Source: Octopus vulgaris (lineage: Eukaryota). Taken from it: 64,000 nt of DNA. Below the pieces are notes generated by a model. The model did no database searches. It was not told the DNA's origin and was given only the letters and a program-made list of their open reading frames with translations. The stretch is taken from positions 87,172,001-87,236,000 of the forward strand of contig OX597821.1 in assembly GCA_951406725.2 (NCBI GenBank), written 5' to 3'. This document shows positions 2,107 through 62,257 of this stretch, one piece after another (the first letter of the stretch is position 1; each line of letters starts with the position of its first letter). The position numbers were made by a program, and so were the translations under genes.

Positions 2107-3054
2107 TGTTGTTCGAAAACTGAGGTACTACTACTGTATTATGTTTCTCCCGCATATATCCAAAGATTTATTTTATGTGAAAAAAATCTGATAAAAGTTT
2201 ACATTTCAATTTATATCTTTACTAGAATCATTTCACATCAGTTATGTTGTGATATTCACACATTTCTCAAATGCTTGATTATCACTAAGACGATATTCTG
2301 CTAAGATACCACCGACATCAAGTTTATGTAAAATATTTTAGAGCGTCAGAATATCTACATTATATAATTTAGGTTCTTGGATTTCTGAATTCAATTCACA
2401 TCAAGGTCTATTTTATTTATTGCTTATGATTTCTTACAAAGGCAAAAGGTGTTAGATCCATAGGATGACGGAACTGAAATTATGTGATTTTCACGTCTTC
2501 CTAGAAGACATTAGAATGTGTAAATAAAGTGAAATGAATTCAGCTGGGTATTACTGATAATTTATTTTGATTCTATATCAATAGCCTTCACAAAATCATG
2601 TTTGAACCACTGGAGGTTACATAGAAAGTTGAATAAGAATCAATTTCAAAGTTGATATAAGATATGAGGAATTAAGTTAAATGTTCCCCATCAACAGCAA
2701 TGCTTTACTTGTTTGATCTGATGCCAAGTGAATGATGAAATATTTTGGAGAAGCTTTCTATCAGATCTTTTGCCATTTGCTTAAAGAATTTATTCTTGAA
2801 GCTGTCTAGCTTCAGAAATTTTCCTTGCTGAAGTTATAATACTGACAAGAACTTTGCTATGAGGCTTATAGAATTGGTGGCACTGCTTGTGAATGGTTTG
2901 GGTGTGGTGTAAATACACACTCCTAAATCATGGTATATGCTTGTGTGTGTATGTGTGTATACATATATAGATGCATTTAAATACATAATATATATACATA
3001 TAAATACAGATAGATATACAAATATAAAAGTAAAATCTAACAATTAACATAGTC

Positions 3055-3428
3055 ACAGGAGTGGCTGTGTGGTAAGTAGCTTGTTTACCAACCACATGGT
3101 TCCGGGTTCTACTATAGCCTTGGGCCAACCAAAAAGCCTTGTGAGTGGATTTGGTAGACAGAAACTGAAAGAAGCCTGTTGTATATATATGTATATGTAT
3201 GTGTGTGTGATTTTGTGTCTGTGTTTGTCCCCCCAACATCACTTAACAACCGATGCTGGTGTGTTTACGTCACTGTAACTTAGCGGTTCGGCAGAAGAGA
3301 GCAATAGAATAAGAACTAGGCTTACAAAGAATAAGTTCTGGGGTGGATTTGCTCGACTAAAGGTGGTGCTCCAGCATGGCTGCAGTCAAATGACTGAAAC
3401 AAGTAACAGAGTAAAAAGAGTAAAAGAA
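3055..3428 (+). mobile_element. SINE family B
   Basis: caggagtggctgtgtggtaagtagc...gactgaaacaagtaacagagtaaaa; small internal deletion after the B box. Confidence 0.9.
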
Positions 3429-9806: not shown

Positions 9807-10119
9807 TTTTATATATCTAAAAAATTTTTTTTTTTGCTTATTTTAACATTTGAAATATATTATATTGATAATTTATATCCTTAACTAATGAAGTCATCAC
9901 TATCATGATCTTAATGTCCATTTGAGAGAGACATTTAGGCCAATCCTGTTTGAGGATCTCCTTCTCAATCTGCTTCCAATTTACTTTGTGAAAGTTTAGT
10001 TTGGAGAGATTTCGGGTGCTTTGTATAGGCTGTATGTCTGCAGGAGCTTTTGGTCCAGACATAGACAGCTCTATTATATTGTGATCTGAGATCAGTGTCG
10101 GTGTCACTTTAACATTATG

Positions 10120-10508
10120 GGTGCCAGTGGCACGTAAAAAGCACCATCCGTTCGTGGCTGTTGCCAGCGCCGCTCCTACTGGCCTCGTGCCGGTGGCACG
10201 TAAAAAGCATGATCCGTTCATGGCCATTGCCAGCCTTGCCTGGCCGCCATGCCGGTGGCACATAAAAAGCACCATCCGATCATGGCCGTTGCCAGCTTCG
10301 TCTGGTCTCCGTGCCGGTGGCATGTAAAAAGCACCCACTACACTCATGGAGTGGTTGGCGTTAGGAAGGGCATCCAGCCATATAAACATTGCCAGATCAA
10401 ACTGGGCCTGGTGCAGCCTTCTGGCTTCACAGACCCCAGTTGAACCGTCCAACCCATGCTAGCATGGAAATGCGGACGCTAAACGATGATGATGATGATG
10501 ATGATAAT
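10120..10508 (+). mobile_element. Family D SINE-like element with (GAT)n tail and internal tandem repeats, nested in the LINE
   Basis: Four ~61-67-bp-spaced units starting gtgccggtggcacgtaaaaagcac; ggttggcgttaggaagggcatccagc; aacccatgctagcatggaaa..(gat)n. Confidence 0.88.
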
Positions 10509-11246: not shown

Positions 11247-12204
11247 TAGTACCAATGTAGTACATATAACAATATTAAGTTGTCTTATGTGTACAAGTTA
11301 AGTGTCACACACTGAATTAGAATATGACAGCAGGTCCTGGGGTGTGAGGTACTCTCGGATGTACACAGCAACTCCACCGTGACTCCTCTCCTTTCTATCT
11401 GAGTGTATGTCAACATAATGTGGTATATGCATTTCTGCATCCCCTATATGAGGTCTAAGTTGGGTTTCTACAAGTGCCATGCATAAAGCTTGATTGTATG
11501 CCACAAGGTCTTTCAGGAATGAGATTTTTGATTTACAGTTGCTATGCAACAGCCTTCCTATATTCAAAAGAAATATCTTTGTGAAGGTGTGTGTTGGTAT
11601 TAGTGGTGGCCATCTTGTATCTGTTGGTGGTGGTGGCCTTGTGCAGTGGCGGGCACAGTTCCAGGTTTGGGTTTGAAGCCAGGTCAGTCGCTGGAAAATC
11701 TTTTGTGCCATGCACAAAAAAAAGTTGCTGTCCACCTGCTGCCCTTTTCACACCTGGGTGAAGCTGGCCGTTTGCTGGGCCACACACTACATCTGCATAT
11801 TGTCTTTCGGAATTAGACAGTGTGCTATTTTTACTTCTAACTTATGTAGAAATTTAATTAATAGCTAAGTTATACTGGGGATTAAAACTAAAACCAATTA
11901 TGTTGCATTTGACAGGGCAATGTTCATTAGACATCCGTTTATGCATGCTTACACAGATTGTACTGGCATCTACAGGTATATACACACACAAACACACATG
12001 TACATGCACACACACACACACATGTGTGTACAATACATACAAGATTATATGACATGGTCTTGGCCCTCAGTTTCCAGTGGAGTCACAAGGGAGCTGGACA
12101 TGACATACAGTACACCTGTTTCTTCCAATCTGTCTCAGTTGTGTGCTACGGCTTTCCAGTCATGGCTAATGAATGGACTTGCTTGTCCATTCTTTGATCC
12201 ATGT

Positions 12205-58968: not shown

Positions 58969-59011
58969 TATCAAATAAATACATATATATATAAAATATA
59001 TAAAATATTTA

Positions 59012-59363
59012 TATGATTCCGGGTTCAGTCCCGCTGCGTGGCACCTTGGGCAAATGTCTTCTACTCTAGCCTCGGGCTGACCAATCCCTTGTGAGTGGAT
59101 CTGGTAGGCGGAAACTGAAAGAAACCTGTCGTATATATGTATATGTATGTGTATGTATATGTTTCTGTGTCTGTGTTTGTCCCCTACAAACATCACTTGA
59201 CAACATCGCTGATGTGTTTACATCTCTGTAACTTAGCGGTTTGGCAAAAGAGACCGATAAAATAAGTACTAGGCTTACAAAGAATAAGTCCTGGGGTCAA
59301 TTTGCTCAACTAAAGGCAGTGCTCAAGCTTGACCACAGTCACATGACTGAAACAAGTAAAAGA

Positions 59364-59364: not shown

Positions 59365-59400
<36 letters not shown>

Positions 59401-59468
59401 GGAGTAAACACATAAATGTGAAACAAGGTGGAAAAAGAGTACTCAAATACCAGTGGTAGAGTAATATG

Positions 59469-59670
59469 CTTTATTTAAAGCAGCAGAAAATTCAGCAAAA
59501 CCTGTTACTCTGAGTTTCCCGTTGCCGTTCGTCGGACAGTTTTTGCTAGAATTCTAGCAAAAACTGTCCGACGAATGGCAACGGGAAACTCAGCAAAAAC
59601 TGTCCGACGAACGGCAACGGGAAACTCAGAGTAACAGGTTTTGTTGAATTTTCTGCTGCTTTAAATAAAG
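59469..59670. repeat. Palindrome centred on gaattc (59549-59554) with a 36-bp tandem duplication in the right arm, within a (TA)n-flanked unit
   Basis: ctttatttaaagcagcagaaaattc...tttttgctag|aatt|ctagcaaaaa...gaattttctgctgctttaaataaag; ctgtccgacga at 59564 and 59600. Confidence 0.9.
59600..59637 (+). ncRNA. Hammerhead-like fold with variant core CCGACGA
   Basis: ctgt-CCGACGA-a-cg-GCAA-cg-g-GAAA-ctc-a-gag-TA-acag; stem I ctgt/acag extends into gcaaaa/ttttgt; identical copy on the minus strand at about 59502-59539. Confidence 0.5.
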
Positions 59671-59701
<31 letters not shown>

Positions 59702-59724: not shown

Positions 59725-59855
59725 CAATTAACTCACAAGACATTGGTTGATCTCTGGCTATAGCCGAAGACACTTGCCCAAGGTGCCATGCAGTGGGATT
59801 GAACCCCAAATCCCATGGTTGCAAAATAAACACCTTAACCATGCAGCTATGCCTA
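59725..59855 (-). mobile_element. SINE family B 5' half
   Basis: ctcacaag..gaagacacttgcccaaggtgccatgcagtggg. Confidence 0.8.
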
Positions 59856-61668: not shown

Positions 61669-62257
61669 TTCACATCTATACACAAATACAAAAAAAAGTA
61701 TCCACATTTGATATTGACCAATCTCAACCATGTGTGATACATCATATACAAACACTTATTGGTAATCTCTGAACATTTCTCTTCAGAAATTCTAGTCAAT
61801 AATGAACGAACATTGACAACAGGATGAGACTAAGTCAAACTGGTTCCCCTAAAAAAACACCAATTAAATAATAAACATAGAAATATATAAAAGTAATCTG
61901 GTATAATCCACCTCATAGCTAAAAAATATCCACAAATATAGCAAGTATATTTCTGACATTGATTAATATGAACTTCTCTTTACAACATATAACATAAAAA
62001 ATTTTCAATAAAATTTCTGTTAATGCTAGCTACAGCTGCATGTGAAAAATAGTATTACAAATATCTAATTGCAACCTAAAATCCATAATCATCTTACAAA
62101 CTGTCCAACTTCTGTGTAAATGAAGAAACATTTCTAGCTGCCCTCTGGATAAAGAGTGCCCATGGAAAGGAAGAGATGTAGATGTAGTATCATTACATCA
62201 GGTTAATTTTGAGCACTTTGAAAACTAAATAAACACAAACATATCATTTCTCTAGAT

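Follow-up and report, generated by a model that had tools for sequence, protein, structure and literature searches.

Penelope-like elements (PLEs) of the Hydra clade insert into (TA)n repeats and encode proteins with the marks RWK, DKT and CxCX5C and without CCHH, and the available text on this clade states that the role of hammerheads in PLEs is unclear (Craig et al., 2021; PMC8557442). The minimal hammerheads of metazoan PLEs are of type I, with a 4-bp stem I and a palindromic stem III that requires dimerization, and occur as solo copies and opposite-strand pairs; as monomers they are inactive and as dimers hardly active, although their core is canonical (Cervera and de la Pena, 2014; PMC4209133). 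PLE insertions have been described as head-to-head inverted pLTRs with a palindromic junction, one tailed arm and an AT-rich target (Arkhipova et al., 2013; PMC3846280; Frangieh et al., 2024; PMC11167929). According to the latter study, both strands are nicked and then extended by a Penelope protein, which initiates at two sites that set the tail and can insert in vitro without hammerhead cleavage (Frangieh et al., 2024). Natural hammerheads with C instead of U at core position 4 (U4C) are known from viroids and viroid-like RNAs, namely PLMVd, ZV1 and betaviroid-like RNAs, where the change is tolerated. According to excerpts of the respective reports, U4C "considerably decreases activity in vitro", yet the viroid stayed infectious (PMC3088659), U4C in a PLMVd variant is said not to abolish cleavage (PMC9608096), and the minus-strand CCGA hammerhead of zeta virus ZV1 was cleaved in vitro at the expected site (10.64898/2026.09.16.752053).

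We analyzed a stretch of 64,000 nucleotides from Octopus vulgaris contig OX597821.1 (hereafter the window, numbered from its first letter), in which self-comparison revealed a 272-bp head-to-head palindrome inside (TA)n, located between 59398 and 59671. We consider it probable that this unit consists of head-to-head hammerhead-motif repeats in (TA)n that form the likely truncated end of a Hydra-clade PLE, that it belongs to an amplified subfamily with C at position 4 (C4), and that it is predicted not to cleave within the palindrome. On the left the unit is bordered by a (TA)17 microsatellite (59365..59398), which is the likely insertion target, and on the right by (TA)14 (59671..59698). The left arm (59399..59551, minus strand) is the hammerhead-bearing terminal unit of the element together with its tail, with very high summed contig depth across the whole arm in three runs. 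The right arm (59592..59670, plus strand) is nearly identical to the left one and stops without a tail at the short 3' end of the family. The two 5' ends are joined head-to-head at the palindrome centre GAATTC (59549..59554). Positions 59464-59547 and 59592-59675 are 98% complementary across 84 nt, confirming the first-pass annotation, which had described a (TA)n-flanked unit folding back on GAATTC, and the right arm differs from the left one by a single mismatch in 83 nt if an extra 36-bp copy is set aside. No second copy of the palindromic unit was found elsewhere in the 64-kb window. The AATAAA that had been noticed about 25 nt after the motif in each arm is indeed present, at +59664 and -59475, 26 nt past stem I. 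A function as poly(A) signal was rejected, since no poly(A) follows it and AATAAA is frequent in the window (84 + 77 sites); among the 3' flanks of relatives listed, inspection by eye detected no AATAAA at the corresponding place.

Each arm contains one complete minimal type I hammerhead-like motif, at 59502..59539 on the minus strand (core CCGACGA at 59535-59529, predicted cut after 59506) and at 59600..59637 on the plus strand (core at 59604-59610, GUA at 59631-59633, predicted cut after 59633). Both follow the order stem I CTGT/ACAG, core, A-CG-GCAA-CG-G, GAAA, CTCAGAG and TA, and thus form a three-stem junction closed by stem I at its ends, as in hammerheads, with a stem II of 2 bp and a GNRA loop. 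Within the window, CCGACGA occurs only at +59568, +59604 and -59535. These three cores had been taken for three copies of the motif, of which just two are complete, as the third (+59568) lacks a cleavage strand of its own. The statement that the core departs from CUGANGA at U4 in every copy was borne out by a position scan: position 4 is C in all three, and the remaining core positions are canonical (CUGANGA + GAAA + UH). A hammerhead descriptor allowing any base at position 4 matched the window twice and none of 200 base-shuffled copies of its 64 kb. The 76 Rfam matches at E <= 10 included none to a hammerhead family; they consisted only of hairpin-like microRNA matches below their gathering scores. 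Classification as a non-LTR retrozyme was discarded, since the unit is solitary and head-to-head and the accessible definition of retrozymes requires head-to-tail tandem monomers of ~170-400 nt with a complete hammerhead in each (PMC7229834).

With the published Hydra-2_aMil hammerhead, the motif in the window shares stem I CTGT/ACAG, stem III ACTC-N-GAGT and the GUA site, and with several Hydra hammerheads the unpaired base on either side of stem II; (TA)n flanks and a bulged hairpin in the tail are further features in common with Hydra-clade PLEs. In contrast to what the available text reports for the clade, the locus has CCGA instead of CUGA, a stem II of 2 bp with a GNRA loop instead of 3-7 bp, and no attached ORF (Craig et al., 2021; PMC8557442). 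The published octopus hammerhead Hydra-1_oBim, as far as given in the supplement of the same study, differs from the window motif, indicating that the unit belongs to another family. The type I topology, the 4-bp stem I, the dimer-requiring palindromic stem III, and the occurrence of solo copies and opposite-strand pairs are shared with the minimal metazoan PLE hammerheads, whereas the core variant presented in the available part of that work is U3-A8 and not C4, and the window motif has a shorter stem II without G10.1-C11.1 (Cervera and de la Pena, 2014; PMC4209133).

A metagenome scan with a pattern that fixed stem I, a core with C or T at position 4, GAAAC and GTAACAG and left stem III largely free returned at least 136 matches at no fewer than 120 loci. 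Among the 136 matches listed, 132 had a CTGA core, 123 of them with stem III CTC-N-GAG; the second commonest motif was the published Hydra-2_aMil hammerhead, and none of the matches listed was a copy of the window's own repeat family. The four CCGA matches listed (L005 and L067, which have the same sequence, L058 and L118) were without stem II in bacterial-looking DNA and were treated as chance, and pattern scans of viral contigs and of prokaryote genomes gave 0 matches each. At one locus (L049), the same scaffold lies ~200 nt upstream of a 714-aa ORF (P0001) that by eye bears the marks which Craig et al. give for Hydra elements, RWK, DKT, YRDD, CxCX5C, CxxC and CxH, and that matched no Pfam family and had 2,524 relatives at E <= 1e-20 among 8,000 candidates. 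At 2700-3260 of this locus, the full ORF is followed in tandem by part of a further copy. Covariation of the stems, which had been suggested as a check, was found for stem II across families (U-A in 8 and C-G in 7 of 15 motifs, namely 14 outside ones and the window with C-G); 95% of cells were paired, which 0 of 500 shuffles equalled, and the invariance of stem I and of parts of stem III is by construction, as these were fixed by the search pattern.

No RT + GIY-YIG ORF is attached at the locus, and no ORF linked to the window's family, and hence no autonomous partner, was found. A decayed Hydra-type ORF fragment at 61890-62159 on the plus strand, corresponding to the thumb-linker region with 45% identity to P0001 (E 1e-12) and three stops, is a separate old insertion, 2.2 kb from the unit and unlinked to it. 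The locus shows the insertion into (TA)n that is characteristic of the Hydra clade, and loose (TA)n ends are present in contigs as well. An origin from the Naiad clade was rejected, as Naiads are without canonical hammerheads and the scaffold fits Hydra elements. The proposal of an inverted Penelope-type pLTR is supported by the hammerhead scaffold, the head-to-head layout and the one-sided tail, all common to Hydra-clade relatives.

To see whether C4 is private to the locus, reads or contigs of 4 public runs (24 listed) were compared with 59398-59605, the three informative contig runs being from related organisms. In these three runs, 3,725, 3,777 and 1,740 contigs matched, with summed depths of up to 1.7 million, and the family appears as a dispersed high-copy repeat with 5' truncation, with depth stopping near 59551. 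Position 4 (59534) was C in 70.6, 59.3 and 72.8% of depth and the canonical U (U4) in 29.4, 40.7 and 27.2%, whereby the C4 share is inflated and U4 undercounted, because contigs were compared with a C4 reference and depth halves across the core. Non-U depth at this position amounted to 350,768, 99,786 and 33,300, whereas the eight long pieces listed for each run had median depths of 30, 8 and 7; this suggests that C4 copies number thousands, a rough estimate given that depth does not equal copy number. The U4 to C4 change is therefore neither private to this locus nor family-wide. The natural core variant envisaged in the first-pass annotation is inherited, with C4 in 59-73% of depth in all three contig runs, in a family that is mixed; C4 holds the majority of contig depth and is not a uniform consensus, with U4 at 27-41% in a reference-biased count. 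In a raw-read run (X22), 5 of 12.9 million reads matched, all on the tail, all with T>C at 59429 and none on the core, although the repeat is very abundant in the other runs.

Other common changes in contig depth sit at places where hammerheads tolerate them, namely position 7 (U in 54-58%), the N of the GNRA loop (GCAA to GGAA in loop II in 24-35%), the base preceding GAAA (U in 30-49%, A in 26-45%), the internal loop of stem I (38-46% changed) and the centre of loop III (3-6%), all of these being per-position marginals from which linkage among the changes is not readable. At G5, at G8 and at the remaining CpG sites of the arm, every change stayed below 4%, and hence methyl-CpG decay is not the source of the U4 or U7 classes; CpG decay as origin of the C/U mix was discarded for the same reason.

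Folding of the whole unit predicted one long hairpin of ~80 bp (-155 kcal/mol, z = -21). Relative to the free ensemble, the hammerhead fold costs 5.4 kcal/mol for the left arm alone and 4.7 kcal/mol for the right arm alone, compared with 26-80 kcal/mol within the full palindrome, where the RNA forms the long hairpin and both motifs are buried. Since the antisense arm is transcribed first on either strand, read-through RNA is predicted to be a double-stranded hairpin rather than a ribozyme, and the motif within the palindrome is predicted to cut poorly or not at all. Single-arm RNA could build the catalytic junction only as a dimer via the self-complementary stem III, which is predicted to pair with itself in a duplex of 4+4 bp interrupted by an A-A mismatch (-7.4 kcal/mol). 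Cleavage of such single-arm RNA is probably weak in view of C4 and of the 2-bp stem II with its GNRA loop.

Two other accounts of C4 have to be weighed against an amplified, weakly or non-cleaving lineage. A possibility that we regard as tentative, and that fits our preferred explanation except for the level of activity, is that the C4 hammerhead cleaves usefully as a dimer, perhaps with the help of the element's protein, and that C4 marks an ordinary active lineage. The cleaving CCGA hammerheads of the ZV1 minus strand and of the PLMVd variant, as far as described in the accessible reports, favor such activity, as do the self-pairing of the stem III strand and the invariance of the other core positions at the 4% level in contig depth. 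The reported loss of in vitro activity by U4C argues against it, as does a mutational scan in which every single change in the CUGA turn resulted in low activity (PMC9901934), and the available data on minimal PLE hammerheads indicate weakness even with a canonical core. Moreover, in the published excerpts the viroid-like U4C motifs are of type III with full stems, reside in small replicating RNAs and are minority variants or known from single genomes, whereas C4 in the window is on a minimal type I scaffold with a stem II of just 2 bp and represents a major class of a high-copy animal retroelement family. It is extremely improbable, by comparison, that C4 is private decay, i.e. a mutation of this locus or of a few copies in a CUGA family. 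Such decay would agree with CTGA in 132 of the 136 outside matches listed and in all 26 Hydra rows of file S2 of Craig et al. (2021), an excerpted list obtained with a CUGA-based descriptor (PMC8557442), and with the 27-41% of U4 depth, which is probably an undercount. It is already contradicted by C4 depths that are thousands of times those of single long contigs in all three contig runs, and position 59495 illustrates what a truly private base looks like, with 99.9-100% of the depth in the runs departing from the window. Under the explanation that we prefer, U4 would likely be ancestral, and C4 would be derived and have spread by further retrotransposition.

The head-to-head layout with one tailed arm is ordinary for PLEs and published, and recurred among the relatives: two full motifs lie head to head, 3-38 nt apart, at 16 of the 120 metagenome loci listed. 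Of the 122 main-family motifs listed, 46 are preceded by an antisense copy at a distance of up to 70 nt, 29 enter the element body, 27 start at other DNA, 1 is preceded by a sense piece and 19 are too close to a contig end. At 5 of the 25 inverted-arm loci listed (L011, L020, L089, L102 and L104), neither arm contains the other, with L014 and L066 as borderline cases; at the five loci, one arm corresponds to the tail side and the other to the 5' side. Simple fold-back cannot make such non-nested arms, which need two copying events, and we read these insertions as an indication from genomes that priming in Hydra-clade elements occurs twice, in agreement with the nicking and extension of both strands from two start sites (Frangieh et al., 2024). 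Contigs of the window's own family also have inversions at varied positions, with joints leading from 59473-59495 to 59534-59551 on the opposite strand. Compared with the depth just before the GAATTC centre, less than 8% is left in the first bin past it and 1.5-1.8% in the second, so that the exact GAATTC-centred form is a minority of contigs, with the caveat that contigs tend to break at perfect palindromes. Compared with the PLE insertions in the accessible parts of PMC3846280 and PMC11167929, the unit comprises only the terminal ~80-150 nt and its tail measures 70 nt instead of 30-40. At this locus, the element's protein may have nicked both strands of the (TA)n run, a mechanism shown for relatives only, and two cDNAs would have been started, with priming at the tail end for one and at the short end for the other. 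Each would have extended to a 5' end just upstream of stem I, and the two would then have been joined at GAATTC.

The right arm is preceded by the extra 36-bp copy of the 5' half at 59556..59591 on the plus strand, which comprises the stem I strand, core, stem II and GAAA-CTC. An extra core half directly upstream in the right arm had been reported before, and we found it to be 97% like 59592-59627, with one change that gives a U-G wobble in stem II. It most simply and likely results from a local slip at a 2-nt AG match, whereby one of the cDNAs would have slipped back 36 nt and re-copied the 5' half. Contig depth breaks off where the duplication is joined, with 0.3, 1.8 and 12% left in the following bin of the three runs and 0 in the last.

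Two further readings concern the palindrome and its tandem cores. We think it unlikely that the palindrome arose by fold-back or is mobile as an entire MITE-like unit, with an incidental resemblance to hammerheads. The two-cDNA route is inferred for the window locus, and fold-back fits here too, as the short arm lies wholly within the long arm, which fold-back requires, and some depth does cross the exact centre (15,831 and 7,089 in run X3). The sharp loss of depth past the centre, the many positions of inversion joints and the asymmetric pairs in relatives, with their need for two copying events, speak against it, and so do the covariation of stem II and the linked ORF in relatives. Selection of the tandem cores for a dimer-like or monomer-competent fold, as raised in the first-pass annotation, appears very improbable to us. 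The upstream core could close a 3-bp stem III round a 37-nt loop and thereby avoid a 1-nt loop, and in the full plus-strand RNA the extra copy could serve as a decoy, so that the downstream core would be freed at a cost of 26 instead of ~80 kcal/mol. However, the extra copy adds no second cleavage strand to the single one in the right arm, and joining the upstream core to the downstream site requires 12.8 kcal/mol, which exceeds by 8 kcal/mol the 4.7 of the ordinary fold of the right arm alone. Furthermore, the palindrome buries the motifs, the duplication joint is not among the contig joints listed, and similar re-copied motif pieces occur at 3 of the relatives' 16 junctions listed. A preference for a dimer-like fold is consequently not upheld.

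The 70-nt tail (59399..59468, minus strand), a feature that the first-pass annotation does not mention, is present in the left arm only, and one-sided tails are typical of the relatives as well: exactly one arm is tailed in 13 of the 16 inverted pairs listed (L083 and L119 among them being one site), two pairs are cut by contig ends, 1 has no tail and none has two. In the contigs, loose (TA)n ends, which indicate the family's two 3' ends, occur before 59464 in three runs and before 59400 in one. The tail opens with a bulged hairpin (59440..59463, minus strand; predicted fold, z -1.4), and a hairpin of identical shape was predicted at the corresponding position in all five relatives that were folded (z -1.5 to -2.6). 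At the sequence level, the tail resembles relatives weakly, with a similarity clearly above that of shuffles in 1 of 9 comparisons (4/500; the next 24/500).

The layout, the (TA)n target and the dimer-type stem III are already known, as is the CCGA core from viroid-like RNAs, and the palindrome and the extra 36 bp are routine insertion products. What our data suggest as new is that C4, in a heavily amplified subfamily that exists alongside a U4 one, forms a major class of copies in an animal Penelope family of high copy number. In the literature searched, neither a CCGA core in a Penelope element nor an octopus hammerhead family was reported; this novelty may be affected by Lunse et al. (RNA Biol, PMC5785218) or by Ambros and Flores (1998). 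Searches with descriptors that require CUGA would miss this large class of copies. With thousands of copies of both the C4 and the U4 type from one family in a genome, copy number, age and cleavage rate can be compared directly. A speculative reading, which we consider rather doubtful, is that in this animal group a C4 lineage with a crippled hammerhead reached higher copy numbers than its canonical U4 sister, with all remaining core bases and the palindromic stem III retained, because the hammerhead fold serves as a handle for the protein or as a stop or join mark for the cDNA instead of as a cutter. If that were true, the C4 and U4 subfamilies would constitute a natural knock-down experiment on the purpose of PLE hammerheads.

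With its many microsatellites and SINE-like flanks, the surrounding landscape has the look of octopus DNA. Among the 148 of 444 window frames examined, no Pfam family scored above its curated cut-off. Frames at 11301-11747 and 9841-10458, both on the minus strand, resemble by eye remnants of a LINE endonuclease region, again with no Pfam match. The palindromic unit is flanked by two related repeats in opposite orientation (59010-59363 and 59731-59812; 78% complementary), which we take to be SINE-like, and it sits in the (TA)n run that closes the first of them.
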